Source: Amphiscolops sp. MND2022 (Eukaryota). From it: DNA of 64,000 nucleotides. The stretch is taken from positions 8,434,001 through 8,498,000 of the forward strand of contig OZ076409.1 in the NCBI GenBank assembly GCA_964187785.1, given 5' to 3'. This document shows, one piece after another, positions 1 to 23,115 of this stretch; position 1 is the first letter of the stretch; every line of letters starts with the position of its first letter. The position numbers and the translations under genes are program-made. The notes beneath the pieces were generated by a model. It did not search any database and had not been told where the DNA came from. It worked only from the letters and a program-made list of their open reading frames with translations.

Positions 1-10
1 GCAGCAGCAG

Positions 11-3000
11 ATGGCCGACGCCCGCAGAGAAACCCAATATATCATTCACAGTGATCACCCATACCTATATCGACGGAATAGCAATTACAACGACTCCGAA
101 ACTCAATTTAGACCCTTACAAACTGTCGAAGATTATAACCCTCAATACTATGACCCCGAGTATGGCAAAGACCCGTACTGGGACGAAGAACTATATGACA
201 AAACCAATTTACAATTTCGAAATGAAGATTACCCTCCAACTGACGACGAGGACGACCCAGACATTAAAGACAACACACTGTCTCGGGCCCTCATTGATCT
301 TTGGCAGCCGAACTTTGAGGCAACTATACAAGAAGTAGACGCCATACACACACAGGAGGACCACAAGGCTCCTAATAGTCTTTTAGACGAGACAGCCTTC
401 TTACACCTCCTAGTGACCAAAGAAGGAGAATTACCATACGTTCCCCTTTCAACAAACCTTGGACTTAAATTCAAACGACGAATGCTCTATTTCCCAATGG
501 ACTTTGGGGAATTAACTATAGATGGCCTGATAGACACTGGAGCTCACTCCAGTGCAATCCCGGAGGCAGACCTCAGGAAAATACGCCTGTTGGCCCCCCA
601 ATCCATTGTAAAAGAAGGTCCTGCCCCATCCTTTCAAATAATGGTCGCAAATGGAGACTTAGAAACCCCAAAGAGCACAGTCGAACTAAAATTCGAAGTG
701 GGCGACATAGAATTTCACGAAATTTTCATTGTAATGGAAAAACTGTCAAGCCCCATAATTGGACTAATGTTCCTTCAAAGGAACCACACTGTCCTGGACA
801 TGCGCCAAGGTATACTCAACTTTCCCTACTTCTCGATGCAACTCAAGACGGCTGACCATAAATACTCAAATGTTTTGGAACCCATCCTCAACCCTGAGGA
901 TGTCACAATCTCGCCCAATGACCATGTGGTCATACCCATTCAATCACAAATTTACGCAGAAAATGCAGTTACGGGCATATTGCAACCTAGCGATCTTCTG
1001 CACGAGGAAGGCGACATAACCTTCTGTGCCGCCATAGTCACACTACATGAAGGGGCTATGAGAATACACGTCAACAATTTCACTGATCAACCCTATAAAA
1101 TAAAGAAAGGGATGCACATTGCAAACTTTTCAGTGATGACCCCTGAACAGATGAAACACGTCAGGCCAATAGACCCAGTGTCCACCTGGCACTTACTGAA
1201 TGAAAATGAAGACGACGCTATTTATTATATTAGTAGCCTTCTTAAAGCTAACAGAAATAATGACCAATACGAACAATATTGGTTCCCGACGCCTGAAAAC
1301 CCAGGGGACGAAACGACCCATACCCCAATACAACAAAGAATTCTCAAAGAATTACGAAACCTGCAAAGTTTAGAACAACTCAACCCGCACGACGATGCGG
1401 AATCTCGTCGAAAATTCCTCAACAATTTTGATTGGAAGGACTCAATGTTACAACAACATGAAATCAGACAAATAGAAACTCTATTAGTGGAATTCCATGA
1501 CATCTTTGCACGCCATAGATTTGACATTGGCGTCAATGAGGAATTTACGGTCAAACTGACCCCAAAAGACGAATCACCTGCCTACAGTCAGAGCCTACCT
1601 GCCCCGGTCAACCTCAAAGAAGACATATTGGTTGAACTGGCGTTACTCCATAAATATGGGATTATAACAACACTACCATTCTCGAAGTACGCCAGTCCAA
1701 TATTTGCGCAGAAAAAACCCAATGGAAAACTGAGACTGTTGGTGGATTTGCGAAAGATCAATAATCTGATTTCAGATGACTACGTCAATAACAACCACCC
1801 AGTCAGCACCTTGACGGATGCGGCGCAACATATGGCAGGCAAAAAGCTCTTTTGCAAACTCGACTGTTCCCAAGCTTATCATTGCCTTCCTATGGCAGAC
1901 CAGAAATCGATTGAAATGCTAGCTTTAAACTTCGCCAGCAGGACATTTGCATATAGAAGATTGGCCCAAGGACTCAGTAGAGCCCTGTCGGCCTTCTCCA
2001 GTTTCATGAGGGAATACTTGGATCGTGTTATAAAAGCAGACCAATGTGCTCAATATGTGGACGATATCGGTGTCGCGGCGATAGACGCTAACCAGCTCAT
2101 CGTCAACTTAAGAGCAACGTTCCAATGTATCAGGGAAGCAGGATTGAAATTGTCCATGCACAAGTGCCATTTCGGCGCTACTGAAATTGACTTTCTTGGG
2201 AGAACCATTACACCTGAAGGCGTAAAACCCCAAAAAGAAAGAATCACTAATTTCCTGGAAAAGACGAAATTCCCGAAGTCCAAAAAGGCCCTACAACGTT
2301 ATCTTGGTTTCCTCAACTACTACAGGAATTATATACCCAGATTATCGGAAAAATTAGTTCCCTTCTTCCAACTGCTCAAGAAGGATGAGAAAGTCCTAGT
2401 GACAACCGAACTAGTTGAACAGTTCAATCAAATCAACAGAGATTTAGACAGGTGCAGTCAACTAGCGCTGAAACAACCACTGCCCAACAAACAGCTAGTC
2501 CTCATGACTGACGCAAATTTTACGGCAGCCGGTTACGCCATACTGACCGAAGATGACCCAAATCAAAAATACACCTCTGTCAAGAAATCATATGCGCCAA
2601 TTGCTTACGGATCAAAAACCTTTACTCCCTCTCAGCTCAAAATGTCGATATACGCAAAGGAATTCCTAGCCATATATTATGCGTTTAAAGAATTTGGACA
2701 TATCTTCTGGGGAACCCCTCAACCTGTGATCATTCTCACAGATAACAAATCGGTCACGAGGTTCTTCCAGACGAAAATAATCCCACCGCCACTCTGGAAT
2801 GCTTGCGATTTTGTCATTCAATTCAACTTTGTCATAGCGCACATTCCAGGCAATAATAACACAGCGGCGGACTACCTGTCACGTATGGAAATGGACCCTA
2901 CTGAAAAGTTAGTCCTGAAAATACGTGAAGACGTCGAAACCCGACCGATTGAGGTCAATGTTCAATCAGCGGGAGTATCTGAAGAAGAGCAGGTCTTCTT

Positions 3001-3971
3001 TACTGAGGCAGACGATGAGACAGAGCAACAAATTTGGGAACGGAAACAACAATCCAAAAAGGGCCTCATAGTCCCTGAGACAGTAATCCAAATTGACGCT
3101 ATATCAGAAAATACCGTCGAAGAGATTACTAATTTCACGCAGAAATTAAGAAGAACAAATCAGATACTGCTTGAACAATTCAGAGACCCGATTCTCCTCC
3201 AATTGAGGGCGAAACTTCAAAAAGAAGAATACTCTGAAGAAATCCTTCAACAGGATATTCGGTACAAGTATTACTTGAACAACATAGACCGAATAATCCT
3301 CAAAGACGAGATAGTGACGCGGCAGTACTACGATGAAACCGGACAGGTCAAATATCATCAAATCTTATTGCCAAAGCATTTACTCAAAGAATTATTACAA
3401 GCACTACATGGCACGGCACATCGACACCCGGGCATTTCTAAGATGCTACAGGAAATTCGCCAAAAATACTACTACCCCGGAATTGCAAAACACGTCAAGA
3501 AATGGGTAGAAGGCTGCGAAACATGTGCCAAGGACAAAAGGGTCCCCAACACGGTAATCACCCCAGAATTACTGAATTTACCTGAATGGGACCTAGGCCC
3601 AGAAGATGCCATGCAAATCGATTTACTGCCAAATTTACCAACTAGCGGCGGATACCAAACGGTGATGACGGCAATAGATGTATTTTCAAGATATTTATTC
3701 GCCTACCCACTAATTGAGGCAACAGCCGCAAACGTAGCCAAGGTGATAATTGACATCATGACGAAACATTCGTATTTGCCAACAACACTCATCACGGACA
3801 AGGGATCCGCATTTACATCAAAAATTTTAGAAGAAATTACTGCAATACTGGGGATCACATTGAAGTGTGCCACTACTAAACATCCGCAAACTATTGGTAA
3901 ACTTGAAAGGACACACGCCTCTTTAAAAACCAACCTAAAGATGGCCTCAGGGGAATACCGTCGTCAATGGC
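11..3971 (+). CDS. pol: Element A Pol, N-terminal part (aspartic protease, dUTPase-like spacer, RT, RNase H, integrase HHCC and DDE core)
   Basis: LIDTGA protease; VDLRKIN/KLDCSQAY/YVDD RT; MTDAN...EFLA...LTDNK RNase H; H-x5-H...CETC and QIDL/ITDKG/KLERTH integrase. Frame is open from the window edge and cut at ...YRRQW by element B. Confidence 0.95.
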
Positions 3972-6127
3972 TGTCGCAGGCTGCCGCCTGCAATGGAACA
4001 ATCATCACAACATCAGCAGACGGACAAAACATCGCACCAGGAACGCTTCCTACATTCTAATGTTAAAACTGAAAATTAACCAATCACAGTGCAGTATAGC
4101 TAGTATTATCTCTCAGCAATACATTATTTGGCCGGTTATGGCCGCTTGCCTTAATCTAACTACTATGCTCGCACACGCTGGTCCAATGGCCGGTTCCGGC
4201 CTATTTAGCTTTCATCAAGTATTATGTGCTATTTAATCAGTAGTGCTGTGTATTTTCTTGGAAAGTACTTGAAACTGTCTTAATACGTCAGATGCAATGA
4301 TTAAAGGTGTTAGGAGAAGAATTGCTAATTGTTTTAATTATAGTTGCTATTGATAAAATCCTGTACCAGAAACGTCACTTGAGCACGCGGCCTTGTCCAA
4401 TCAAATTACTCCATTTGCTACGCAGTTAATACTTCCATTCATTAATGGCCGAATAAGGCTTGTGGACATAACTTCGCTGCTTTTAATAAATATTCAGTCA
4501 AACGGCCGGTTCCGGCCATTTCACATAAAGCGCAATTGTGATGCTAATTGTTCTCACACTTAACCAGGATTCACGTGCTTGTACTCTTAGGCTAAATAAC
4601 CCCTCTAGTGCAGTATTACCTAACTATATCCCAAACTTAGCTCTTTCAGACGGTTAAGGCCGTTTGACCAGTATTTAATATTGATTACTTAGTACGGGGC
4701 AATTAGCCTATTCAGGCCAGATTGTGTAAAGCGCTGTACACATTTTTGATTGATTGGCCGTATATGGCCACTTGACATTATATTAGATTGGTAATGCAGG
4801 ACAAAATGCAAATGGCCGGTTTAGGCCATTTTGCTTATTATCATTAGAGATGCTTTTAAGCATGAATGAGTTTGTTTTACAGTCATGTAAGATTATATTT
4901 ATATACTTGAAGATGTTAATGAGCTTTCTAAATCCAATTAGTGCTATAATAACGACCAGTAGTAGCAATCCGAATACCCGTCACCTGTCCTATTCCGGCC
5001 TTCGCTAATGGCCAGTTTCCAAGTCCAATGGCCGTATCGGGCCATATTACTATATTATGTTCATTTCTATTGCATGAAACTGTGTCTTTGTTTTGTTGAT
5101 TCTACGCACGTGTGTAGGCACGTGTCGCTAAATAGTTTTCATTCCTCTCACTGTAAACAATTTGAAAGTATTAGTTTTGATGTTTGGTCAAAGTGTTGTT
5201 TGCCTAATATAATAAAGCTAAATTCCTCCGCTCCCCTTTGATGATAGTATTTGCAGTTAGAAAATGCATTTGAGTGCATTCCATATTTTATGTAAACTTT
5301 AAATGATGTTGCTGCGAATGAACTAGGTATGAATGTCCTTTGACCCTAACGGGACAAATTCCTAAAGTGCTTTGATGTAGTTGGCGCCGCTAAAAACGGA
5401 TGGATGTTAGTGGTCACCCGCCATAGTCATGTGCCCTTTATGGAATCTGTAAATAGATTGTTATGCAAGGAATTTGAGTGTCACCCTCTCAGGGGTATAT
5501 ATTTTAGTATTTTTCCCAAGAGGGACACAATTGTATTTTGCTTCTCCAAGTTTAGTTTGACATACCTGTTTACGATACAACGTACAAAATCCTAATTTCC
5601 GAACAAGATAATTCACTATTTTCGCTCGGACTTTCTTCAATGCATATTCAAAGAAAGAGGAGAAAGCTTAGACAGGAATCTTGCTAGAAGGCCCGAAAAT
5701 GCCATTAGCAATAACTTTGGAAATGACGATGAAAACATGTACTCAAGTCTACGAGTTGTCAGTACAGGGATAAATGCCGATTACGGCCAGAATTCAGTCG
5801 GGACTAGTTCTAATGCTGAGATTAACAGGTTGTTGAGCGAGTTGAACTCGAGGTTATCTAGAGAAGTAGATGGGATGATGAGTAGTGTCAATGCCCAGAT
5901 CCACAGGGCAATTAGTGATGCAATTGATAGTCAAATATTGCCTCAGATTCAAACTGCCCTATATTCCGGATCGGGCCATTTGACACAAAATAGATGGAAC
6001 GTTCCGTCCGAGAGACCGGAAATCATACCCGAAGAAAACTGCTCTAATAAAACTAGGAAAAACTCAAGAAGTGAGCAATTCCGTGATCGTCCAATTGACG
6101 GAACCACAAATGCTAGTGCTTACGACA
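3972..6127 (+). repeat. Element B 5' LTR
   Basis: Direct repeat of 12031-14186; six substitutions seen by eye (4707, 5055, 5469, 5911, 6026-6027); TG...CA termini with a TGTCG/CGACA inverted repeat. Confidence 0.96.
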
Positions 6128-6651
6128 TGGTGACAGGAGAAAACGAATCTCCAATCGATGTTCCTGAGTTTCTCACTGGACGAATGCCATCAAGAAGTCA
6201 TCTACACGGATCCCATGATGACCTCAATCCCTTGCTCGACACGACAATCCCAGCACAAGAAACGACCGTTCCGGCCCTAGAACAACTGATGACATCTTCA
6301 ACCACCAAAGCAAAAACTGTTCCTTCAAATGTGCAAATGAGTGACATTACGTGCAACTATTGCAAACAAAAGGGCCACATGGTCAAGGATTGTGAAAAAA
6401 TGAAAAAGGAAAAAGAGAAAATTGCCCAACGAGGCAAATCGACCCAGAAAAAGGTTTACCGTAAAAGTGGTACTTGTGGCAAGACAAACCATCCCGAAGA
6501 GAGATGCTGGCAAGGGGCTGGCGCGCATCTCAAGCCCAAGCGCACCAGCCCAGAGGACCCGTCGGACAACGATCCTGACTCCAAAGCCTCAAAACCCCAT
6601 TACAAACCAGCATCATCCGGTTCCCAATCTTCATCAAGCAAGGATGATTAA
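5737..6651 (+). pseudogene. gag: Element B gag remnant (begins inside the LTR, capsid region apparently deleted, CCHC knuckles kept)
   Basis: ORF crosses the LTR end and PBS (AYD|MVTG); CNYCKQKGHMVKDC knuckle plus a degenerate second knuckle SGTCGKTNHPEERC; too short for a full gag. Confidence 0.85.
6128..6139 (+). promoter_or_regulatory. Primer-binding site of element B
   Basis: TGGTGACAGGAG immediately follows the LTR-terminal CA (TGG complements the tRNA CCA end); primer tRNA not determined. Confidence 0.8.
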
Positions 6652-6657
6652 AAAAAC
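6651..6657 (+). promoter_or_regulatory. Putative -1 gag-pol frameshift heptamer A AAA AAC
   Basis: Lies at the gag end; its -1 frame is that of ORF 6759 (WQQQM), homologous to the start of A's pol. Confidence 0.6.
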
Positions 6658-9587
6658 TAGCGTCGCCACGACTCCAATAAAACCAACTAGTCTCTGTCCG
6701 ACAGTGCAACAAATCGGACCCTCCAAATAAAAACTTTCATGATTACAAACAACAATCGATGGGCTATCCTTCTGTTGTGTGGCAGCAGCAGATGGAAAAA
6801 GCTATCATTATTACTTACAATATTACCCATTTGTTCCAAAAACCAATTCCTGTTTGGAATCCTGATTACACCACTGCCTTCACTACCCGATTCAGACCCA
6901 TTCCCTTTGTAGACGACTACAATCCGACATATATCGACCAAGATTAAGGAAGAGATCCGTATTGGGACACAGAACTCTACAAACAGGACATATTGCAATT
7001 TCAATACGTCCTAGACGACATCGACCACTACAACAAGACAGTCCACAAGAACCCTCCAATTACCCATAACAAGAAAACCAGAGCGCTAATTGAAAAATGG
7101 CAAATGAATGATGGTACACACCATCCGGTGTTCCCAAACCCCTTGGGAACCGAGAATACCGAAAATAGTGCCGAATCAATACCACAATCGCTACTAGATA
7201 GATTGTTCTCATTACCAAAGATGATGAACCAGACTCTATACCCCTGTCAACCAACATCAACCTCAAATGCAAGAAACGCATGCTTTATTTCCCAAAAGAC
7301 TTTGGGGAACTGACCATTGATGGACTTATAGACACTGGGGCACTGTCCAGTGCAATCCCTGAAATGGACCTCCGGAAAATTCGCCTTCTATCTCCACAAT
7401 CTGTTATCCGGGAAGGCCCGCCTCCGAACTTCCAGATCATGGTCGCTAATGGGCAACTGGAAACTCCTAAGAGTACCAAAGAGCTCAAATTCGAAGTTGG
7501 TGACATTGAGTTCCATGAAATTTTCATAGTAATGGAACATTTGACAGGACCGATCATTGGACTAATGTTCCTTCAGAGAAATCATACAGTCTTGGACATA
7601 AGACAAGGAATCCTGAATTTCCCGTTTTTTTCAATGCAGCTTAAAACAGCTGACCACAGATATTCCAACGTACTAGAACCGATTCTCGACCCCACCAAAG
7701 ATAACGAATCTCGTGCAAAATTTCTAGAAAACTTCGACTGGAAAGATTCCACTCTTACTCCTGAAGAAAAGGAGAAAATTGAAGAATTACTAGTGGAATT
7801 CCATGATATATTTGCACGACAACGATTCGATATAGGCATGAACGAGGAATTCAAGGTGAAATTGACACCTAAGGACGATTCCCCAGCCTATAGCCAGAGT
7901 CTCCCAGCCCCTTTCAACCTGAAGGAGGACATCTTAGTCGAATTGGCCATGTTACACAAATATGGCATAATCACCACCCTACCATTTTCGAAATATGCGA
8001 GTCCCAGATTTAAACAAAAGAAACCGAATGGGAAACCCCGACTCTGGGTTGACTTGAGAAAAATCAACAACCTCATCTCGGATGCTTATATCAACAATAA
8101 TCACTCCGTTAGTACACTAGTCGATGCTGCCCAACACTTGGCAGGCAAAAAACTGTTCTGTAAATTAGACTGTTCGCAGGCATACCAGTGCCTGCCGATG
8201 GCTGACCAACGTTCAATCGAAATGTTGGCTTTCAATTTTGCCAGTCGCACATTCGCCTACAGACGTTTGGCACAAGGCCTTAGCCGGGCGCTGTCCGCTT
8301 TCTCGAGCTTTATGAGAGAATACCTTGATAAAGTTATTAAGGCGGATCAGTGCGCCCAGTATGTGGACGATATCGGCATCGCAGCCAATGATGCTGACCA
8401 CCTCATAGCGAATTTAAGAGCTACGTTCAAATGCATTCAGGAAGCAGGCCTTAAGTTGACAATGCACAAATGTCACTTCGGTGCAAAAGAAATTGATTTT
8501 CTTGGACAGACAATTACCCCACAAGGCGTCAAACCCCAGAAACAAATTGTACAAAACTTTCTGGAGAAAACCAAATTCCCGAAGTCGAAAAAGGCTTTAC
8601 AGCGCAATTTGGGATTCTTGAACTACAACAGAAATTATGTCCCAAGACTTTCAGAACGCCTTGCCCCATTCTACAAGATGCTGAAAAGTGACGAAAAGGT
8701 CCTGGTATCGAAAGAATTAGTCCAACAATTTGAAGAAATCAATAGAGCACTCGACAAATGTTGCGATTTGGCCCTACAACAATCTATCCCGAACAAGCAA
8801 ATTGCACTAATGACTGATGCAAGTTTTGGTGCAGCTGGATATGCGGTCTTAATTGAAGACGATCCGAATCAGAAATTTACCTCACTCAGAAAATCATATG
8901 CACCAGTGGCATATGGATCAAAAACCTTCAACCCAGCGCAGATCAAGATGTCAATTTATGCCAAGGAACTTCTTGCAATTTATTTTGCATTCAAAGAATT
9001 TGGCCATATTTTTTGGGGTGCGCCCAAACCGTTCATTATACTCACTGACAACAAAGCTGTAACCAGATTTTTCCAGACGAAAATTGTGCTGTCATAATAC
9101 AAACTCTCTCTACAAATTTGGTTGAACAACAACCTGAGATACAACTCCGAGTACGACAGAAGCGAACGCAGGTGATGCAAGCGAGAATGCAGCGGATGAG
9201 GTAATCACGACTGACTGTCCGAATGACGTCAATGATGCAGTGCACAGCCGAGATAAAAGAATGAAAAGTGACGTCAGCAATACAAATGAAGCTAGTGAAG
9301 CTGCTAGAAATGCAAACTCTGATTGGCCGGATTCGGCCGTTTACCACAAAAATCAAGAAAAATCTTTGCCGGATCTGTCCGAAAGACAGGAAGATGAAGC
9401 AAATTTTTCAGAAAGAAATTCTACTACAGAAACCGATGCATAAAATTCTCCAAAAAGGGGGGATGATATTATCGTGCCCGAAATATCGCGAAATTATGAA
9501 GGAATTGATAATCTGAGTCCTAGAGGTGGAAGATATAATCTCAGGCCCAACCCTAATCCAAACTACTCAGAAGATCTCAGATACTAA
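6657..9587 (+). pseudogene. pol: Element B pol, with stops, frameshifts and large deletions (dUTPase-like spacer, RNase H end and integrase core missing)
   Basis: ORF 7280-9097 is highly similar to A pol (DTGA, YVDD); jumps from RFFQTKI to the acidic tail ending YNLRPNPNPNYSEDLRY* at 9587. Confidence 0.9.
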
Positions 9588-9845
9588 CGAAAAGATTGAA
9601 TTGCATCTCGAAACGAACGCTGCTCTCTTTTTCCTTTTATCTTGCATTTTTTGAGACACAGAAGACACTATTTTCTGAATAAATATGGGGACTTTCTTTC
9701 GGCAATAATCCCTTTCAAGAAAATACAGGGATTAGGAAATCAACACTAGATGACAATGAATAAATACAAGACAACATCAAAAAAATCGAAATAAAGAAAT
9801 CAACAGAATATACAGTTTGAAGAGTACACAAATACATATGTACAT

Positions 9846-10214
9846 TTAGTTCTTAGATCTGAACACTGCCGTTTCCTCCACGAGTGATGAAGAAGCCGAG
9901 CCAACTCCACTACTACCGGACCGTTTCCTTTTGAATGCACTTGGAATTTGAACTGCTGATTTTCCGATTATACCAGAAAACTCTGATGTTTCAATTCGTA
10001 CAGCACCCACTTTTGGTCCGGCCTTAACGACATTGTATGACAACAACAAAGACTTGTAGGTCAGAGACCGACTGAAAACGTCAACATGTGTCCACGGGTC
10101 AAAGTCGGGCTCAAAAGCTGATTGACCGTAATCAGCAGATAGAACAGAGAACATGGGCAAGATTGGCAGTAGAACCAGGATCTGGTGTTTGATCATTCTC
10201 GGAACGATATTTAT
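9846..10214 (-). pseudogene. Element B remnant of the antisense accessory gene (5' end fused to the C-terminus by deletion)
   Basis: DPWTHVDVFSRSLTYKSL matches DPWVHVDTFGRADFYKTL of A's antisense gene; same position and orientation; same TAAATGTACATATGTA after the stop. Confidence 0.8.
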
Positions 10215-11321
10215 CTAAACAAAAGGGAATGAAATTTGGCGGTCAGCTTCCTTCAAAGAAATCCATTTTGCCGCATTAGAAGCCTTCTAGAAGCATTTTG
10301 AAAATTTGAACGAAGCGTGTTATCACGCGTTCAGTGATGGAAATAGGAAGCACTTTGAGAACAAAATTTAGCCCTGATCAAGTTAAACCAGTTCAAAATA
10401 AAAATCCAGACCAACCTGTGTTCGAAGACATTCTGCTGTGATGAGATTGCCTCCTGGGATTCAGTCCTTGTCCGGTTGACAAAACTGGGGAAATTGGTAG
10501 AGTTGGGCTGAAGAAAGGAAAGAAGATTCGGAATGCTCCGAGAAGGAAGGAATCAGCAACAACAGTTGAAGACAGACAACCAATGTAAAGGAGGTTACAG
10601 AAGAAGTCAAATGCAATGAATACAAATGGTAAAAGGAAATGAATCATGTACCTGTCAAAAAACTTCAAAGTTGGACTTCGTGGCTGGAGAAACTATCAGA
10701 CTAATATTTTATGGCTATTTACGAATTTAAAACTGGGCATGGAGTCTGCCAGCGAAAAGTACAGAAGATTGATCATTATTTACAAATTAGTTAGTTAGAA
10801 GCCGATTATGGCCATTTACCTTGTTCCGTTTTTCCGTTTTGTTCCGTTTCCCTTTTTACCATTTAGTTAAATTTTCCGCCATTCTGGATTATTTCAGCTA
10901 TTATTTTCGCCATTTTACTATCCAATTTGCATTATATCGAAAGTCAATTTCGATTGGATAAAGCCATTTTGAGAGAAACCTTTGGCGCGTGCCGTTAATT
11001 GCCTCCAAGCGACTCGTTAGTTACCCACTTGAAACGAGTGTATTTAATATTAACATCTTGAGTGTTGTTCACACCCTTTCTGATGACGGGAGTGATGAGG
11101 GGTAAACACCAGAATATCAAGGGCCGCTGACCATTGATGGAATTCCATTCAGAAAAGTTACGCCGACTTCGGAAGATTAACCGAACTTTTGACCGCCGAA
11201 GTGAAAATCCCGGAAAACGGCCTGACTTGGCCTGAAGTAAAAGGATCAACAAAATCATTCCTCTCAGAAATTCAACACTGAATAATTGCCCTTTCTAGCT
11301 CAAAATTGCGAAAAACTCATA

Positions 11322-12119
11322 ATGGAAAAGAATATAGCAAGGAGACTCTTCGAAGAGGATGACTTCGACTCTGAGACTACGAGTGATTCTGTGATCTACA
11401 TCTCCACTGATGAGAGCGAAGGGATGTCAGAAGAATGGGACTCGGACTGGTCAACTAACACCTAGGACATGATCAAGAGGATCGAGACAGAGGTGGTGTC
11501 CAGCCCTAAGCTGATAGCTGGGAGAATAGTGACTTCTAACAGTCATGAGGACTTGATTATGATCCCAGGGCCCAGCTCTAGTAGGACAGATGTGGAATCG
11601 ACCCCTAAACTGGGTGAGCAGTATTTTGATAAAACTCTTTGTTACGCCCCCGCCAAAGAATATGCCAAGAAGAGGATCGAACTCTGTAAGACGGTCATAC
11701 CTGTGGATGACTCGCCCATGTCGCCACCTGCCCATGCGAGAGGGCCTGTGTTGGAAACGATGTTGGCCCCGTTGCCACAACCGGCTAATTCTGGGTTCCG
11801 TGTTTCTTAAAATGTGCAAGACACGGTGCCTTACGAGAACGTCAGCAAGAAGATGTACACAAGCTGCATCGTTTGTGGGAGATCAGCTGACGCTATCAAG
11901 AGGGAGAAGGCAGATGACTATATAGGGAGATCAACACCAAGAGGTGAGCCGGCCTACGTCACAGCAATGAGGAAGGAAGCTTATTTGAATGGACTGAATG
12001 CAGGGTCGTTTTCATTTATTCCACCCGCAGTGTCGCAGGCTGCCGCCTGCAATGGAACAATCATCACAACATCAGCAGACGGACAAAACATCGCACCAGG
12101 AACGCTTCCTACATTCTAA
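11322..12119 (+). pseudogene. Element B 3' accessory ORF (ORF3), two in-frame stops, runs into U3
   Basis: Single frame from ATG 11322, broken by TAG 11463 and TAA 11808; shares IYIS-acidic, GEQYFD, SPMSPP, CxxCG and AAAC motifs with A ORF3. Confidence 0.8.
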
Positions 12120-14186
12120 TGTTAAAACTGAAAATTAACCAATCACAGTGCAGTATAGCTAGTATTATCTCTCAGCAATACATTATTTGGCCGGTTATGG
12201 CCGCTTGCCTTAATCTAACTACTATGCTCGCACACGCTGGTCCAATGGCCGGTTCCGGCCTATTTAGCTTTCATCAAGTATTATGTGCTATTTAATCAGT
12301 AGTGCTGTGTATTTTCTTGGAAAGTACTTGAAACTGTCTTAATACGTCAGATGCAATGATTAAAGGTGTTAGGAGAAGAATTGCTAATTGTTTTAATTAT
12401 AGTTGCTATTGATAAAATCCTGTACCAGAAACGTCACTTGAGCACGCGGCCTTGTCCAATCAAATTACTCCATTTGCTACGCAGTTAATACTTCCATTCA
12501 TTAATGGCCGAATAAGGCTTGTGGACATAACTTCGCTGCTTTTAATAAATATTCAGTCAAACGGCCGGTTCCGGCCATTTCACATAAAGCGCAATTGTGA
12601 TGCTAATTGTTCTCACACTTAACCAGGATTCACGTGCTTGTACTCTTAGGCTAAATAACCCCTCTAGTGCAGTATTACCTAACTATATCCCAAACTTAGC
12701 TCTTTCAGACGGTTAAGGCCGTTTGACCAGTATTTAATATTGATTACTTAGTACGGGGCAATTAGTCTATTCAGGCCAGATTGTGTAAAGCGCTGTACAC
12801 ATTTTTGATTGATTGGCCGTATATGGCCACTTGACATTATATTAGATTGGTAATGCAGGACAAAATGCAAATGGCCGGTTTAGGCCATTTTGCTTATTAT
12901 CATTAGAGATGCTTTTAAGCATGAATGAGTTTGTTTTACAGTCATGTAAGATTATATTTATATACTTGAAGATGTTAATGAGCTTTCTAAATCCAATTAG
13001 TGCTATAATAACGACCAGTAGTAGCAATCCGAATACCCGTCACCTGTCCTATTCCGGCCTTCGCTAATGGCCAGTTTCCAAGTCCAATGGCCGTATCGGG
13101 CCATATTACTATACTATGTTCATTTCTATTGCATGAAACTGTGTCTTTGTTTTGTTGATTCTACGCACGTGTGTAGGCACGTGTCGCTAAATAGTTTTCA
13201 TTCCTCTCACTGTAAACAATTTGAAAGTATTAGTTTTGATGTTTGGTCAAAGTGTTGTTTGCCTAATATAATAAAGCTAAATTCCTCCGCTCCCCTTTGA
13301 TGATAGTATTTGCAGTTAGAAAATGCATTTGAGTGCATTCCATATTTTATGTAAACTTTAAATGATGTTGCTGCGAATGAACTAGGTATGAATGTCCTTT
13401 GACCCTAACGGGACAAATTCCTAAAGTGCTTTGATGTAGTTGGCGCCGCTAAAAACGGATGGATGTTAGTGGTCACCCGCCATAGTCATGTGCCCTTTAT
13501 GGAATCTGTAAATAGATTGTTATGCAAAGAATTTGAGTGTCACCCTCTCAGGGGTATATATTTTAGTATTTTTCCCAAGAGGGACACAATTGTATTTTGC
13601 TTCTCCAAGTTTAGTTTGACATACCTGTTTACGATACAACGTACAAAATCCTAATTTCCGAACAAGATAATTCACTATTTTCGCTCGGACTTTCTTCAAT
13701 GCATATTCAAAGAAAGAGGAGAAAGCTTAGACAGGAATCTTGCTAGAAGGCCCGAAAATGCCATTAGCAATAACTTTGGAAATGACGATGAAAACATGTA
13801 CTCAAGTCTACGAGTTGTCAGTACAGGGATAAATGCCGATTACGGCCAGAATTCAGTCGGGACTAGTTCTAATGCTGAGATTAACAGGTTGTTGAGCGAG
13901 TTGAACTCGAGGTTATCTAGAGAAGTAGATGGGATGATGAGTAGTGTCAATGCCCAGATCCACAGGGCATTTAGTGATGCAATTGATAGTCAAATATTGC
14001 CTCAGATTCAAACTGCCCTATATTCCGGATCGGGCCATTTGACACAAAATAGATGGAACGTTCCGTCCGAGAGACCGGAAATCAATCCCGAAGAAAACTG
14101 CTCTAATAAAACTAGGAAAAACTCAAGAAGTGAGCAATTCCGTGATCGTCCAATTGACGGAACCACAAATGCTAGTGCTTACGACA
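12031..14186 (+). repeat. Element B 3' LTR
   Basis: About 99.7% identical to 3972-6127; followed by the ATGGC TSD. Confidence 0.96.
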
Positions 14187-14191
14187 ATGGC

Positions 14192-15198
14192 ACAAATATT
14201 TACCATTAGCTGTGCTTAACTATAACACTACTTATCACGCTAGTATTGGTTGTGAGCCTAGCAAAGTCTTTCATGGCCGAATTCCCTATAACGTCCTGGA
14301 TCACAAATTAGGGAATAATCCTAACAAAAATTTCCTACCGACGACTGAATTCGCGGAAGAATTGCAGCAGAGGACGCAAATCCTCATTGATCAAACCAAA
14401 AGGAACATTATGCAGTCGTATTTAAAGTACAAGGAGTACTACGACCGCAAGGCCAAAGCAGCTCCGCTACAAGAGAAAGACTACTGTTTTGTTCTTCAAC
14501 CGAAAGCGGATAGTCAAGGCTCTAAGATACCATTTAGGGACTTCCGATGGATTGGTCCCTTTGTCGTTCAAAAAACCTTACCAAATAACAATTACATAGT
14601 GCGTCGTTTAAATACGAATAAAACGCAGATCTTGCACAGGATCAGGCTCAAAAAATTTGTTCCAAATACCCCATTAGAGGACAACTACAAAGAAGAGAAA
14701 TTACAGCCTGATGAAGAAATAATAATACCGCAAGATGATTTGTATACCATTTCATGGGAAGCGGACTTTGAGTACGAGCTGTTTGAGCAGAAGAAAAATG
14801 ATTGGCCAGACACGGCCATGCGTCTGCCGCAAGACGCCACAAACAACGAAGTCGACTATTACGTCACCGAGAATGAAAGCAGCAGCGCAACCGAAAGTGA
14901 GCGCAGCAGCGAAAGAATGAATGATAATGACGTCAACACGAATGAAGTACGGCCGAGATCGGCCAGCAACCGTGACGCGTCGTCCCCGCTGAGCGAAACG
15001 CCACGTGGGACGGAAAATCAAAATGACGTCACAAATGATTTAGAGAATGCGGAAATTGCTTCAGAAAGGGGCGTAGATATTACCGTGCCCGGAATATCGG
15101 AAAAAGGAAAAAATGAAGAAAATTCTAGCCCTAGAGGAGGGAAATATAATCTTCGACCTAACCCCACCCCCAACTTCACTGATGAATACAGATACTAG
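14192..15198 (+). CDS. pol: Element A Pol, C-terminal part (integrase end, GPY/F motif, acidic tail)
   Basis: Removing element B and one ATGGC copy restores the frame RRQW-HKYLPLAVLNYNTTYH; WIGPF motif; ends YNLRPNPTPNFTDEYRY*. Confidence 0.93.
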
Positions 15199-15423
15199 TC
15201 AGACATGTAAATTAAAGTCACATAAGTCTCTTGGACTAAATTAATATTTTTTACTGGGACTACTCTGACTCTGAACTTTTCAAATAAATACAATAAAAAA
15301 CAATAAAAGAGACCCAATGGTCAACAAGCAATCCACAAAACGCTTCAACAAATAAAAGGAAGATCAGTTGGTTCACGTTAAATACAAAATAACAGACTAA
15401 AGAACAAAAGTACATATGTACAT

Positions 15424-18400
15424 TTAAGATTTAGTGGCCTTCTGTCCAGCTTCTTGACCGTCTGTGGTATCCTTCACAGCATTGGAGCCATCAAAAGAAA
15501 CTTTCTTTTTTACTTTCCTAGGAGAAGATTTACGCCGACCACCTGCAGCAGGAGAATTAGAACGCGAACCAGTCTTACTCGAGGAAGCTGACCTCGGCAC
15601 TCGGACCACAGATTCGTAAGCGGCATGGAGAGTCTTATAAAAATCAGCTCGCCCAAAAGTGTCGACGTGGACCCAAGGGTCACCAGCCACATTGCCAGAA
15701 TTGAATTGCTGCTCAACCTCACGATATTTACACAAAGAGACATCGTTAGTGCAAACCGAGATGGCGTCAGGGGCTCGTGCTAGGAAAGACTGAGCAGGAA
15801 GCAACACGTCACCCAATCTACACCGAGGACTCTGTGCGTCAACATCCTGGAAACGAATAGTTGGAAGCAAAGGAGTGTCCTCTGTCAAGCACAAGCAGCA
15901 CAATCGAAATAAACGATACAAATGAGGTCGACTTCGGAGCTCAGTCATATTTGACAACAATTCCAGCATATCAGTAAAACCATCAGGCGAATCTTCCAGG
16001 GTAGCATACTTTTCGCGAAATAAGTCGACAAATTCGAGGTACTCGTCCCGACAGTCGTCTTCCAACGAGGATCCTTCCAACCATCCACGGAGATTGAAGC
16101 TGTTATACAGTGCCCGGTAACAATAGGTCGCCTGGTCTCGAGGCAGACTCAAGAGGATGTGCGGGTCAAAACTGGCCATTCCCTTCACAATCTCAGCATT
16201 GATGCTGTGATGCGCTAGCAGCTTCTCAAGAAGGTAGACGACGTAACCCCTTGCTTTTCCAGCGAACTTCTCCTTGCATTCCTCAACGAGTTTGGGGAAA
16301 TTGGGTATTGGCCCTTCCTTGTCACTGTAGTCCCGCTTGACCTTAGAATTAGCAGCTCCATCTAGATCTTCTTTCAATTTCAAGCGGTGAAGAAAGTCCC
16401 TGGAGGAGAGTTGTCGCAATTCAGCAGTTCGCAGAATGGGAAATTGAGTCCAATCAGTTTCGCTAGGATGGTGCTTGGGGAGCAAAGAGCGATAGCATAG
16501 CTTGCGGGCAAAATTGTTCAACTGCCCAAAGGTGAAGAAACCAGCGTCCCTGTATCCAACTAGACTTCTCTCAAAGCAACGAATATCTAAACAGAGAAAT
16601 GGACCTCTGAGCACAAAGCCTTACCCAGTGAGTCCCTGCAAAGAAACTACGTGAACGATCACGAGTAAATTCCCTCTGAAACAAAAGCAATACTCACAAT
16701 CATAGATGATCTTTCCAAAGAATTCCAACTTGACTAAGAAGAAGTCATCGGTGATGATAGTCCACTCAAGACTCTGCGGCTAAAAGGGAACTCAAGCAAT
16801 TAATGGATAGTGATCCTGGGGTCGTACGTCATGAGGAGAAAACCAAAACAGGTACAAGGAAAATTGAAACCTTATTTTTAACTCCTCGCATTTCGTAGCC
16901 AGGGGCAAGTCTAGTCAGGTGGTCAAGAAGAGGCTGCCAGTTGCTGATCAGTTCAGTACAAATAGTCGGAATGCACCGTATCTTCAAGTCGAAGTTGATT
17001 ATAGCCTAAAAGGAACACTCTGTGCTGTGAGATGCACAAACAATGTGCAAACATGTGAGTCCAGCAATATTAATTCAAACCTTGGTCAGTTCTGGGCAAG
17101 AAGACATCCAAGGCTCATCTAGACTGTTGTTGAGGAAGGCCAGAAGGTACTTCAGCTGTGTGAAGAAGTCAATTCGTCCAAACACGCTCCCTTCAAGCTG
17201 ATGCATTAGCTTGGGAAGAGAAAAGGCATTGAAGCGGAATGGGTACTCGATGCCCTTCTTGAACAGCCCGGAACGCTCAACTGATCGCAACACCTCAGAA
17301 GTACAACCAGATAGACAGGCAATTTGTGGTAGCGTGGAAAGAAAGGACAGTAGGCGTGAAATCATCAGCAACTGACTGGGGCCCGGGTCCGAAGGCAGAG
17401 GGTACTTACACAATTGAACCTTGGCCAGGGTACTCGCCTTCCAGTATCTGATTGAAAGGATGCACTGATTTCCGTGTGGTTCAAACTCCAGAGAGTATGC
17501 GCCGCAGGAATTCACGGACTGGGCTATATCCTCCATTCCGCGCAAAAAGACGTGGTGAAACATGGCCTAGAACAAAACGAAATCACCAAAAATTGGAAAG
17601 GCCAAACTATGGCTCAACGGACTTAGCGGATTAAGGTACACCTTCAAAAATCATACGCTTGGTGGTCCTAACTTGTAGAAAGAATGAAAAGACTTACAGT
17701 GAGCGTGAGCGAACTCCAATCAAGCTGTCGGAAAGAGTCTTGATGATTGGTGAAATTCCCAACCTCGGCCCACAGTCTCTCCAGTATAGTCAAATTGCCG
17801 AAATGTGGGACCGCTCGTCCAATCAAAGAAAGTTGAGTACCCAGTCTCAAATCTTCAGGGCATGCAATTCCCCCAGCACTGGCCATATAGTCGTCGTAAA
17901 AGGGAAATCTAGGGCCAATATCCACTAATGGAGCCGATTCGAAACGTGGCTTCTCCTTCTCTAGTTCTAGAGCGGAAAGGAGATGTCCGTCCTTCCCTCT
18001 AACTGCATGGACGGTCTGTCCACTGATTTTGTCCACCCTACTAAGGTGTTCGTAGCGCCATCGTTGGTCTTTGCGCAGATGGGTCTCACTCTGGTAGTGT
18101 CTCACGATTTCTCTGGCCCCTTTGGAATAGATCGACACGTTCGCCTTGCAAATTTGGCAGTAGAATTTGTGCTTGTTATGCACAGGATCTAGTGGTCCAG
18201 TTACGAAAACTTTGGTCCACTGAATACTTTTGAAATAGGCAGCCTTCATGACTTTGCCAGGTCTGCCTACGTACCTCCGCTTCTTGCGTGGCGGACTGCC
18301 TCCAGGTCGTCGTGGTTGGTCTTCTACCCGTATGGCACTTAGAGGTTGATAGTCCCCCTCACTGTAGCCTGGACTAGGGACTGTGGTATGGCTGGTACTA

Positions 18401-19428
18401 GGAGTCCTGTCCATCTCTTCATCGGAAGTATTTGGGTAGCCAGAACGTTCTCTTGGTAGTGGCGTCCCACAGCGTGGCCTGGCTGCAACAACGAGCTCAT
18501 CATCAGAGGTGAGGGCTCCGCTCGTATAATCATCTGTCATTCCTCCCTCACTTTCTGTATCAGCACCTGAGCTATTGGGACCGCCTCGTGTAGGGACCAC
18601 GCCTCGAACCATTGATTTCCGGAACTATCCAGGAGTTTGTTTTCCTGCCCCATAAACAGCATGTAGGACAAGGGAGCGCATGGCATGGATGGATGATTTC
18701 ACAGTTTCATCCGATATGGTTTTGAGGACGGCATGTATTTGCGGCTCACTGAATGAAACAGTACTGTGACCTTTGGGCAATTCAATTGGGGCAGATGAGG
18801 AAAAGTGTTTCCTTAAAACAGCCTGTCCATTAGCCGAAAATCGTTCTGATAATTTCACCTCTCGGGACCCAGACTTTGCGACTCCAGACGTAGCACCATC
18901 TGTATCTTGTCCGGCAGCACCTTCGGTTGCAGATGGTAATTCGGAACAGGTAACGCTTGAGGTAGGCCGTTTACGTGTTCCTTCCGTACCCATCTCGTCA
19001 AGCAGCTCGCCAGCCTCGCTAGTATCAGTGGCAAAGTACTCCTTGCTCTTGTCTCGTGACTCAATGTAGCTGCCAGTCTCTTTAGAGGCCCCTGGTTGCA
19101 TTCCGTCGAGTGAGAAGGCTTCCTTTCCTAGACGTTCAAAACCTATCGACTGAGAAACCTTTATGGGCCCTGCTGTTCCATCTTCAGGTTGTGCCGGTGC
19201 CGGGAGAAATGAAATATCCAGAGAAGGATTATCACTAGCCAGTGTTCGTAAAGTTTTCTCCGCATATGTGGTTTTGCTCTCTTCAGTGTTTCCACTACTG
19301 GATGACTGGTTGGAGTCAGGACGCGTTATCACTACTGGCTCCTTTGGTGCTGTATTGGTCTCTTCGGCAACCCCAGGATTCTCTGATGTTGGAAGAATTG
19401 TGTTGGTGACTTGTTCTTCAGACGCCAT
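15424..19428 (-). CDS. Antisense spliced accessory gene of element A; BED-type zinc finger, hAT-transposase-like, apparently non-catalytic (about 1198 codons, one internal TAG)
   Basis: Exons 19428-17698, 17566-17081, 17005-16871, 16779-16698 and 16586-15424 join by GT-AG introns (131, 75, 91, 111 nt) with matching phases; finger FYCQIC...GAREIVRHYQSETH. Confidence 0.8.
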
Positions 19429-20638
19429 GTCTAAATAGAAAGAAATGAATTCAAGCGGCAAGCTTCCTGAGTTAAAATCCATTAGCCGCGTTAAAAAATC
19501 TTCCGGAAGTAGATTAAATTGAACACTTGTGAACACTTGTGTTACGTGGACAGGAAGTACTTGAACGAAAAGAGTGCCCTGATCAAGCCTCAAATTAGTT
19601 CAAAAATCTAGCCTAGCTAATGAAAATGTATGAAGAACAACTGACCTGTTAGTATTCCAATGCGGGGGAGTTGGTAAGTGATATTTGTGACAGTAGGTCG
19701 TGCCGAACTGACAGCTAAATGGGGACGTCCAAAGTTGGGACTGGATGTCGATTTTCCGGGAGAAGCTGAGGAAACCCACGGGGATGAGGACGAATGGACA
19801 CTGAGTCCTGTGTTGAAGACGAGTGGAAAATATAAATAAAAATGACTCAAAGACTAAATAATTGGCTAAATATACGTTGAGTAAATACGTTGGTGATTAA
19901 ATACTGGATAATACGAGAAGTGAATAGTACAACTAAATGATAAAGAATTGAAAGAAGAATTGGCGATGTGACAAGATGTCAAGATTGGAGTTCGTGGCTA
20001 TACAGTTTGGTGTCCAATTTATAAGTATTTACAATTTATGGTAATACGTGGATAAAGTCTGCCAGCGATATCTACACTTTCCATTTATTTCGAAAACTTC
20101 GTTATTTTACAAAATTATTTCATTATTTTATGTTATTTTATTTTATTTTATTTTCAAGGTCATTTTATATCATTCCTTATATGGATTCACGACCTTGAGA
20201 GGCCATTTTAACTTGGGAGAAATTTTGCTGCAATCTTATTGGTTGATCATATTGATGAAGGCCGGCGTGGCTGACTGCCATAACTTTACCTCCTTGAGTC
20301 TCTCAAGTACCTGATGAGTGTTAATAAACACTTGAGGTAACTCTCCCAACTTAGAAGTATTAGCCTAGCTGATGATAGTCAATAAAACTGATGTCGGCAA
20401 TTACAAAGTGTCTTGGCGACATGATAAAAGAACTAGAGAAGCGGAATCTGTTATTGAAGAATTACTTGCCGGGAAATGTGAAAACCCGGGAAAGGAGAAA
20501 CGAAGAGACTCGCAGTCGAAGGAAACTGAGATCGCCATAATCTCAATTTCTCTGCTAAAAATCAGTTGATTTCAACAACACCTAAATTCCAATAGGAAAA
20601 TAATCAAAATTGCAAAGAAAATCATCAAAATCCGAGCT

Positions 20639-21452
20639 ATGTCAGACATCTCCGAGACTTTCCCGATGGACTTCATCGGAGCAGCAAGATCAGAAGGGGA
20701 ACCGGCAATCATATACATCTCTAGTGACGAAGAGGAAGGACTCGAATTGTGGGTGGTCTGTGGATGACTTGTACTTGTCGTCCGAAGACGAATCAGACGA
20801 GATTAGGCTCATGGCCAAATGCATTGAGAGACAACTTGCAGAGCCCATATCAATTCCTTCAACCTCAGCCGGTCAGACGCAGAAAAGACCTGTGACGCCC
20901 AGGCCAAATGTGCCACCATTTCCTACCTTTGGGGAGAAGTACTTCGACTTGGCAAAGGGAAATGGGCCTGTAAGTCGGGACAACAGGATCAAATCTAATC
21001 ACCCCATAAATATCTGCCGAAATCTAGTACCGCAAGTGGACACCCCGCTATCTCCGCCTGAACAGGACAGAGGACTTCAATACCTATGTGAACCTCATGA
21101 CGACTCACCATCCCCCATGAACACGTCAATGGAAGCGGTGGCAAGCCATTTCGACGAGATGGTCCTTGCCGAGCCACCCTCCTTAGTCAACTACTCAGAC
21201 TGCGTAGTATGCGGGAAATCAGTCAAACAAATTCAAGAAGAGACCGTCAACGAATACCTGGACAGAACAGTAACTGTAGGAGAGACTTTAGCTGAGACTC
21301 AGGCAAGGAGGAGGGCATTCCTAGATGGCATGAACGCAAACGCTTTTCTACTTATGCCAGGGGGAGTGTCGCGGGCTGCCGCCTGCGACGGCAATTGGTA
21401 CTCAGTCGGATACAACTACAATACTCTCCCTGGTACCCTCCCAATGAACTGA
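20639..21452 (+). CDS. Element A 3' accessory ORF3 (unknown protein; one frameshift near 20738) overlapping the PPT and U3
   Basis: Homologous to B 11322-12119; last about 28 codons lie inside the LTR and are also conserved in solo LTR 44612-46135. Confidence 0.75.
21359..21366 (+). promoter_or_regulatory. Polypurine tract of element A
   Basis: AGGGGGAG directly 5' of the LTR-initial TG. Confidence 0.7.
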
Positions 21453-23115
21453 GGAATGGACTATTAGTCCATAAGTCTAAGAAGACAAACTACAAACTTA
21501 TCTTATTATGATTGATTTCGCATATGTTTATATAAGTATATCATTTTATTCGGGGGTTTTATATTAATGAAATTTGAAATGCTTTGGAATAATTATCCGG
21601 AATTAGCCATGTAAAGTATGTAGTTGAAAGTTGAATATAGTGTATCAATACATGTATAACAGTGATAGATATATACCACGGTTGAGAATTTGGACACCAA
21701 GGCGTACAGGTAAAGGAAACGAGTTCAAATGTTTCCTTTCCTGTCTCGCTAGACGCGCTGTCCGTCCAATTTCTCAACCAATCACAGTGCATTGTTCATT
21801 TAGTCGCTTATTCACTCCTGTGCTGTATTCTAAATTAAAGGACTCAAGGGCCACACGCCACCACAACGACGCTACTTTTGTATTAAATAAAGGCGCGTGG
21901 ACACTGAGTCCAAAGTAGAATAAAAGAAGTGCGTATATTGAAATTGATAATGTACTATCTCAGAAGCGGTATATTTACTCTGATTGGAGATCTGTCACCT
22001 TGATTACAAAAGGACCATTAGTCCTTTCCCCCCCTTTTTTGTGTTCTCTTATTTTCCAGAACTTCCTGGATAGAAAGCCAAAACGAGCTGTTTGTATCTT
22101 AAGAAGCCACAAAGGACAGCTCAATGTTCACACACCATCTTTGCATGTATTTATTTCATATGATTTAGCATGTATTGTTTTACATGAAGTGTTGCTACTG
22201 AAACTCAATTGGATGGCCTGAAGGGGCACATGTACATCTTTGAATGTAACTACTTCATATATGTAGAAGCACGTAAATTAATTACGTCATGGTTGTTGTA
22301 TTTTTAGTATTACGATAATATACTTGTAAAGACACGTTGTATGTTGTGTCTATTTTTAGAATACCTGTTACTAAAATTAGACTGATGACTACCACTATTA
22401 TGCATGTCATGTTTGGTTGATTATAAATAACCGGGACCCGTGGTCCCGGGGACATAATCTTCCTATGACAAGTCACAGTCAGTTCGCTGTTAAAATACCG
22501 AATACAATACTGTTTGCAAGCTTAAAGATTCCAATTCAAATTCTTTCCTCTTGCAACAATCTCTTATGCCTTCTACGAGACGTCAAAAGGCGAAAGCTAG
22601 GAAATCTAGAGAAATGGACATGCTGTCCGACATAGAAAATATGGACGTGATGCTAGGCAATGCGAATAATAACCCCATAGAAAGGGAATTAGTCGATGCC
22701 ATTGAACAATCATCAGTACAAGGAGATATTGAGACGAGTGAATACCTGGAGAATCAGTATACTAATTTTCCTCATGAAAATAATCTTCCTAGACAAGATG
22801 ACATAAGGCAATCCCTTGAGACCTTTTCAAACGAGTTCAACCTTAGACTGGCACAGGAAATGGATTCAATGATGTCTATGGTGCATAGTCAGATAAACAG
22901 GGCGATTAGCAATGCTATCTCTGAGAGAGTCATTCCTGAAATCCAGAACATTGTGAGTTCTATGTCTTCCACAGGAAATAGGGACACTGAGGCTAGTGTT
23001 TCCCCGAATAGCCAGGAAAACAGGGAATGTTCATCCGGGTTTAAATCAAAATTTGCAAAGAAGGACTCACAGTCTGCATGTGATTTAAGAGACATTGCAG
23101 GTCGTAGTCATTACA
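21367..23115 (+). repeat. Element A 3' LTR (about 1.75 kb), containing the gag N-terminal coding region from ATG 22566
   Basis: Starts like the B LTRs (TGTCGCGGGCTGCCGCCTGC); ends TTACA at the point homologous to the end of solo LTR 44612-46135. Confidence 0.88.

Follow-up and report, generated by a model that had tools for sequence, protein, structure and literature searches.

The 64,000-nt stretch of DNA analysed here (the window; positions 8,434,001 to 8,498,000 of contig OZ076409.1) comes from Amphiscolops sp. MND2022, whose 1.07-Gb genome is identified as metazoan by 7 matches to Wnt (the best at E 3e-45). The window opens inside a Ty3/Gypsy retrotransposon, element A, which is interrupted by a nested relative, element B. 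Complete copies of the family are approximately 15.9 kb long, with long terminal repeats (LTRs) of ~1.6–1.75 kb and TG...CA ends, and follow the layout LTR, gag, pol, an oppositely oriented gene of five exons, a short open reading frame on the plus strand (ORF3) and LTR. The opposite-strand gene, referred to below as the antisense gene, is the subject of this analysis (Table 1).

Downstream of the pol end (15198), four long minus-strand open reading frames (ORFs) were found at 18625–19599, 17668–18624, 17075–17566 and 15424–16620, and no comparable plus-strand ORF overlaps them up to ~19600. As an initial annotation made from the letters had proposed, these ORFs join in frame through four introns, all beginning with GT and ending with a pyrimidine tract and AG, in phases 0/0/0/1; joined from 19428 to 15424, the frame measures 3597 nt, or 1198 codons plus the stop. 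The length given in that annotation was thus correct but the openness was not, as an in-frame TAG at 18627–18625 (codon 268 counted from 19428) breaks the window copy, while all eight other copies examined carry a sense codon there. The proposed start, an ATG at 19428 preceded by a TTTAG acceptor, had to be abandoned: the start codon is the ATG at 19482, 18 codons upstream, and 45 of 120 homologous exon-1 ORFs begin with the peptide MD.F.GS.P..FI, therefore the supposed acceptor is conserved coding sequence. Likewise, the gene does lie downstream of pol but does not adjoin the 3′ LTR, from which it is separated by ORF3 (20604–21452). All protein strings singled out by the annotation are present, namely PPRKKRR, FYCQICKANVSIYSKGAREIVRHYQSETH, YSLEFE...LSIRYW, NWQPLLDHL and RPHLYRLFRLCCLCL. 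At 19520–19541, 40–60 nt upstream of the start codon, stand 2.2 repeats of the 10-nt unit TGAACACTTG, which may be a 5′ untranslated or promoter element; a search of the spacer and the LTR for repeated motifs as candidate binding sites yielded trivial repeats only.

The antisense gene recurs throughout the family. Searching the genome with the last exon gave 108 listed matches out of 7472 first-look candidates, which fell into identity classes near 98, 93, 72, 65 and 56%; 86 of the 108 are stop-free by a count of the match table, so the ORF is open beyond chance. Eight further genomic copies were fetched for comparisons of exons, introns and LTRs. In all eight the exons are colinear, with protein identities of 42–99%, and occupy the same place in the element, on the opposite strand and downstream of pol. 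The GT...AG ends of introns 1 and 2 are retained in 8/8 copies though the lengths vary, and exon 4 with its flanking splice sites is visible in 8/8, measuring 82 nt in all six tested. An unbroken spliced frame of 1214–1232 codons is present in four copies; of the remaining four, two are disturbed near the N-terminus only and two carry frameshifts. Homologues from other assemblies support the predicted joints as well: P0181 and P0220 pass from exon 1 to exon 2 without inserted residues, intron 1 being missing exactly at the joint, and P0070 passes directly from exon 3 to exon 4, intron 3 being missing exactly there; the frames of P0120 and P0340 each continue through an in-frame intron at these sites. 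Intron presence is thus variable among relatives, with intron 1 gone in two and intron 3 in one.

Between subfamilies c1 and c3, ratios of nonsynonymous to synonymous substitution rates (dN/dS) of 0.17, 0.05, 0.11 and 0.13 were determined for exons 1, 2, 3 and 5, respectively, whereas more distant pairs were saturated in dS, with dN of 0.11–0.41. The antisense gene is under purifying selection, and this selection is strong across subfamilies, therefore the protein matters to the element. Intron and exon nucleotide identities between two subfamilies were 85–88% and 89–91%, respectively, a contrast too small to use. Public databases hold 73 relatives of the last exon, 197 of the finger region and 278 clusters at 50% identity for exon 2, all of them unnamed and mostly exon-sized ORFs; no longer annotated full-length protein containing the last exon was found. 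Judged from these sequences, the antisense gene is a real gene and a trait of the whole Gypsy family, not of one copy. This bears out the initial annotation, which had called an antisense, intron-containing accessory gene a family trait and had looked to intron conservation and dN/dS across copies as its checks.

Table 1. Features of element A, nested element B and the antisense gene in the window
Feature	Position	Strand	Evidence
Element A pol, part 1 (protease, dUTPase, reverse transcriptase, RNase H, integrase zinc finger and core)	2..3971	+	Pfam; 99.4% identity to copy c2 5295–9265
Nested related Gypsy element B, inside the integrase of A	3972..14190	+	2155-bp LTRs, 5-bp duplication ATGGC
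Antisense-gene remnant in element B	10011..10100	-	tblastn, last-exon residues 302–331, 47% identity, E 9e-5
Element A pol, part 2 (integrase C-terminal region, pol end)	14191..15198	+	Pfam Integrase_p58_C below curated cut-off; colinear with c2
Exon 5, stop codon 15426–15424; predicted all-alpha domain, then low-confidence Ser/Lys-rich tail	15424..16586	-	genome matches, AlphaFold
Intron 4, phase 1, GTGAGT...TTTAG	16587..16697	-	splice sites seen in copies
Exon 4, 82 nt	16698..16779	-	exons 3 and 4 contiguous in homologue P0070
Intron 3, phase 0	16780..16870	-	missing from homologue P0070 precisely at the joint
Exon 3	16871..17005	-	in-frame join, colinear in copies
Intron 2, phase 0	17006..17080	-	GT...AG in 8/8 copies, 66–75 nt
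Exon 2, predicted RNase H-like domain (beta1-beta2-beta3-alpha1-beta4-alpha2)	17081..17566	-	
Intron 1, phase 0	17567..17697	-	GT...AG in 8/8 copies, 77–140 nt
Exon 1, opening with conserved start peptide MDFNSGSLPLEFISFYLD	17698..19482	-	homologue start peptide, ORF reading
C-x2-C-x16-H-x5-H zinc finger	18079..18159	-	pattern in 113/120 exon-1 homologues
Basic PPRKKRR patch, resembling a nuclear localisation signal	18274..18294	-	sequence reading; homologues have basic patches at this position
In-frame TAG breaking the gene, window copy only	18625..18627	-	sense codon in 8/8 other copies
Spacer from antisense gene start to ORF3, presumed site of the antisense promoter	19483..20603	.	no long ORF
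ORF3, stop to stop, second accessory frame	20604..21452	+	tblastn matches in 8/8 copies and element B
3′ LTR of element A (TG...CA), preceded by polypurine tract ...CCAGGGGGAG	21367..23115	+	99.3% identical to the 1752-bp LTR of c2

The carrier is a recently active retrotransposon. The pol domains follow the order protease, dUTPase, reverse transcriptase, RNase H and integrase (Pfam gag-asp_proteas, RVT_1, RT_RNaseH, Integrase_H2C2 and rve), the Ty3/Gypsy order with a dUTPase added. Copies c2–c6 and element B have paired LTRs, a 5-bp target-site duplication, a tRNA primer-binding site (TGGTGACAGGAG..., common to the copies) and a polypurine tract (...CCAGGGGGAG). The duplications of c2–c6 and element B are GGTTT, AATGG, GTGTT, ATATC, CTACT and ATGGC, with no target-site consensus across the six, and direct repeats flank all eight fetched copies. 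The paired LTRs are 90.9–100% identical over the eight copies; the family was recently active because in six of them the identity is 98.7–100%.

The encoded protein of ~1,215–1,230 residues is predicted to have a long, mostly disordered N-terminal region in which a single small, conserved helical module is embedded; a basic patch, a CCHH finger and a helical linker follow, then an RNase H-like domain and finally a large all-alpha domain. Exon 1 holds everything up to and including the linker. A finger, an RNase H-like domain and a large helical domain make up the architecture of hAT transposases, and the initial annotation had derived the protein from one of these. We modelled with AlphaFold the homologue P0220, using an alignment of 53 sequences that covers exon 2 densely and the finger sparsely. 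The overall mean pLDDT (predicted local distance difference test) was 57, whereas residues 440–550 reached block means of 75–93 (~90 over 450–540) and displayed a helix, three strands, a helix, a strand and a helix, that is, an RNase H-like core; the presence of such a domain in the antisense protein is thus well supported by the prediction. A separate model of exon 5 was helical over residues 10–233 (block-mean pLDDT 70–96).

Foldseek ranked Hermes first (8edg_A; E 4.9e-3, probability 0.87, 333 columns, TM-score 0.15–0.17), and nine Hermes chains stood among the ranks listed up to 26. In a protein-language-model Atlas, the last exon had the neighbour Dimer_Tnp_hAT at 0.90, and the part from the finger to exon 2 had the neighbours DUF4371, FAM200-ZBED5_RNase-like, ZBED1_RNase-like, DUF659 and zf-BED at 0.87–0.91. 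The all-alpha region, helical by prediction, may correspond to the hAT insertion domain and C-terminal dimerisation region (PF05699), to which it gave no Pfam match. The finger, which the initial annotation had called BED-type, kept its C-x2-C-x16-H-x5-H spacing in 113 of 120 homologues and had zf-BED among its Atlas rows at 0.87, but it was not matched by Pfam zf-BED and gave only sub-threshold matches to other C2H2 models.

Several results weigh against a hAT origin. Pfam matched none of the five exon pieces, nor any of 20 last-exon, 14 longer or 94 exon-2 relatives, and sequence searches of the PDB, with profiles or single sequences, yielded no transposase. As a positive control, six intact hAT transposases from the same genome were run through Pfam, which recognised Dimer_Tnp_hAT in 6/6, zf-BED in 2 and DUF659 in 4; hhalign of the exon-2 and last-exon alignments against these six gave probabilities of 0.7, 0.2 and 0.2%. 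The best such pairing placed the family's S-G-C on the G-C..H block of hAT, colinear yet without statistical weight. By sequence methods, then, the antisense protein is linked neither to hAT nor to anything else. The structural match is itself weak, as the Hermes E-value exceeds the tool's 0.001 line and the TM-scores are low (0.15–0.17), and the model is that of P0220, not of the window protein, and covers part of the length only. VIA searches with an N-terminal model did not place Hermes among the best 50 rows. The PDB searches also returned a weak MORC2/Taq polymerase match and a weak Kelch match, both treated as noise. Ordinary hAT elements are numerous in this genome, with intact transposase ORFs of 468–690 residues (e.g. 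C7:12941800-12944500 and C1:77181000-77183700), and Dimer_Tnp_hAT gave 150 scored matches from 2215 candidates.

These negatives, together with the VIA-align ranking of the RNase H-like domain, in which Hermes came after kinases, Pelota and retroviral integrases, and with the lack, in the family consensus, of the signature blocks invariant in the six local transposases, favour another reading, namely that the accessory protein is real and selected but not hAT-derived. The RNase H-like domain would then descend from another DDE transposase superfamily, from a retroelement integrase or RNase H that was duplicated and diverged, or from some host protein, and the resemblance to Hermes would reflect a shared fold plus a helical domain only. 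We consider this somewhat unlikely, since Hermes was the single best Foldseek match, with nine chains aligned over 200–333 columns versus ~70–120 for other RNase H folds, both halves of the protein independently led to hAT families in the language-model search, and the domain order agrees with hAT. Weighing these concordant weak leads and the domain order against uniformly negative sequence tests, we hold hAT ancestry to be fairly probable; the earlier derivation from hAT is thus favoured, weakly, by fold and architecture and by none of the sequence-based tests. The antisense protein most likely represents an old, strongly diverged hAT-type transposase from which the signature and catalytic motifs have been lost.

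Five blocks are invariant in the six local hAT transposases, i.e. D.W in strand 1, D (DNA.N) after strand 4, C..H, RW and SER(.FS). Neither the hAT DDE triad nor these signature blocks were seen in the family consensus, where strand 1 shows E-F-E, strand 4 is followed by S-G-C, and RW and SER are missing; residues were mapped to the hAT blocks by predicted topology, without superposition, so that the correspondence is a presumptive one. The pattern is consistent with the earlier suggestion that the catalytic D and the SxAxxERxFS motif had been lost. No terminal inverted repeats surround the cassette beyond chance-sized AT-rich 14-mers, and the mobile unit is the LTR element with 5-bp, not 8-bp, duplications. 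Together, hAT blocks without counterpart, missing terminal inverted repeats and integrase-type 5-bp duplications argue that the antisense protein is probably not an active transposase. An enzyme still acting as a transposase or nuclease, in a second DNA-level movement or in target cutting, would fit the predicted RNase H-like fold and the conserved acidic residues of the first strand (E-F-E, invariant in 7/7); as the fourth strand is followed by S-G-C and by no conserved acidic residue on the same topological mapping, no SER-type motif is conserved near the C-terminus, and neither inverted repeats nor 8-bp duplications were found, we regard such activity as very improbable. Least credible of all is a mere passenger, an old nested DNA-transposon insertion or transduced host gene of no service to the element: nested insertions are common, as element B within A illustrates, and the window copy of the gene is broken, but dN/dS is 0.05–0.17, frames stay open across subfamilies with saturated synonymous sites, intron positions and splice sites are retained in 8/8 copies, no terminal inverted repeats flank the cassette, and the gene occurs in every sampled subfamily and in 278 clusters at 50% identity in public data.

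Taken as a whole, the explanation that we prefer, with moderate confidence, is a Gypsy family carrying its own antisense five-exon gene for a protein that is probably hAT-derived and may act as a nuclear DNA-binding factor. The gene is copied as part of the element. Its transcription would start at an internal promoter of its own, located in the 1.1-kb spacer or farther away, and the transcript would then be spliced. Antisense introns survive retrotransposition because the genomic RNA has the complementary sequence, in which they do not act as splice signals, and the four short introns would be kept in this way. The protein would enter the nucleus by way of its basic patch, a presumed import signal, and contact DNA with both its finger and its dead transposase core, serving the element in trans either as a regulator on the LTRs or as a tether of the integration complex to DNA; this role of DNA-binding regulator or tether is tentative. 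To our knowledge, domestication of hAT transposases has been recognised only in host genomes. That an animal Gypsy lineage has domesticated a hAT DNA transposase as a spliced antisense nuclear DNA-binding factor, e.g. for the choice of integration sites or the control of its LTRs, is possible, though we would put it slightly below an even chance.

We know of antisense accessory genes of LTR retrotransposons, intron-bearing ones in Gypsy elements included, only from plants and fungi. In Botrytis cinerea, Boty-like Gypsy elements are said to carry one named brtn, which Zhao and co-workers reportedly described in 2011, and the gene studied here is comparable in that it, too, is an additional gene lying antisense to a Gypsy element. 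HBZ of human T-cell leukaemia virus type 1 is a spliced minus-strand gene for a nuclear regulator and is transcribed from the 3′ LTR; the antisense gene resembles it as a minus-strand gene of a retroelement that is predicted to be spliced and may encode a nuclear regulator, whereas its protein is of an unrelated type and ORF3 lies between it and the LTR. Passages of a review compare antisense ORFs with retroviral antisense proteins and describe, in plant Ty3/Gypsy elements, antisense ORFs between pol and the 3′ LTR (termed aORF-3R), including maize Grande gene23, rice RIRE2 and Silene Retand ORF4, the last with a Transposase_28 domain; the functions of plant antisense ORFs are given there as unknown (PMC7264820). 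As far as those passages characterise them, the plant genes share with ours the position and orientation, which in our family hold in 8/8 copies, as well as family-wide conservation, the lack of clear database relatives and a suspected nuclear or regulatory role. Differences lie in the animal host, the four conserved introns (those passages make no mention of introns), the product of ~1,215 residues predicted to be RNase H-like and hAT-like, and the further sense ORF.

Compared with hAT transposases themselves (Hermes, PDB 8edg/4d1q/2bw3), the antisense protein shows the same order of CCHH finger, RNase H-like domain and large helical domain, with Hermes as the best Foldseek match, but it lacks detectable sequence similarity, a Pfam dimerisation motif, terminal inverted repeats and 8-bp duplications. 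Host genes derived from hAT transposases include ZBED, FAM200 and DAYSLEEPER, names that occur in the Atlas rows and in PMC3499209. Like these, the antisense gene has seemingly kept the fold and lost catalysis; unlike them, the 'host' that keeps it is a retrotransposon and not an organism. The report on Coe1 of Beta vulgaris describes, in the portions available, an eight-exon transposase gene of Tnp2 (En/Spm) type that lies within putative LTRs, aligning with En/Spm-type transposons at a locus that carries a reverse-transcriptase pseudogene (PMC2426827). To that extent both cases present an intron-containing gene of DNA-transposase type between LTR-like repeats; Coe1, however, is a plant locus, whereas ours is a multi-copy, recently active autonomous Gypsy family of many subfamilies. 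Sections of a paper on annelid LTR elements mention antisense ORFs in general terms only (PMC8220671), and full-text literature searches brought up neither this family nor any hAT-like antisense gene in a Gypsy element of animals. An animal antisense gene of ~1,215 residues with a predicted transposase-like fold appears to be new.

The 5′ LTR and gag of element A are cut off by the window start. Window positions 1–3971 align with copy c2 at 5295–9265, and 14182–23115 with c2 at 9256–18192, at identities of 99.1–99.4%, and self-comparison revealed a 2160-bp direct repeat at 3972 and 12031 (99.7% identical); as the window is colinear with a complete copy on both sides, 3972–14190 is therefore nested Gypsy element B. 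Element A in the window is thus a dead copy: a nested relative splits its pol, and the accessory gene bears one nonsense codon. Element B is internally deleted, without integrase and with the antisense gene nearly gone; the homologous remnant that the initial annotation had placed at 9846–10214 exists but is short, only 30 residues at 10100–10011. Its LTRs, 99.7% identical, are ~400 bp longer than those of the A type. The dUTPase between protease and reverse transcriptase spans 893–1141 of the window (residues 298–380 of the pol ORF 2–4060) and matches PF00692 at E 3.1e-5, just above the cut-off.

ORF3 extends 86 nt into the 3′ LTR, has a counterpart in element B at 11286–12119 and gave no Pfam match. 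Its first 45 codons lie in a different frame in several copies, suggestive of an intron, a frameshift or a start farther downstream. In copy c6, ORF3 is 94% identical to that of the window and the antisense gene only ~65%, while copy c3 is the opposite (55% and 93%, respectively); such unequal module identities therefore indicate recombination between subfamilies. Elsewhere in the window, a series of long minus-strand ORFs of 216–550 codons at 36005–40580, with strong AT skew and higher G+C, is flanked by a ~200-bp direct repeat (91.6% identical) at 35793–35993 and 40601–40815, and probably represents a further mobile element.

LTR retrotransposons have few accessory genes, most of them of unknown function. 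The antisense gene belongs to a recently active, high-copy animal element, is large and under selection, and has a recognisable predicted fold, which offers a concrete hypothesis, i.e. DNA binding by a dead transposase core. In animal genomes, such genes are misannotated as host 'uncharacterized proteins' or exon-sized ORFs. If hAT ancestry holds, one class of mobile element would have co-opted the enzyme of another, and the gene would illustrate, in nature, the antisense-intron principle on which engineered retrotransposition reporters rely. Should the domestication prove true, the hundreds of clusters in public assemblies would represent a widespread, overlooked class of composite mobile elements.

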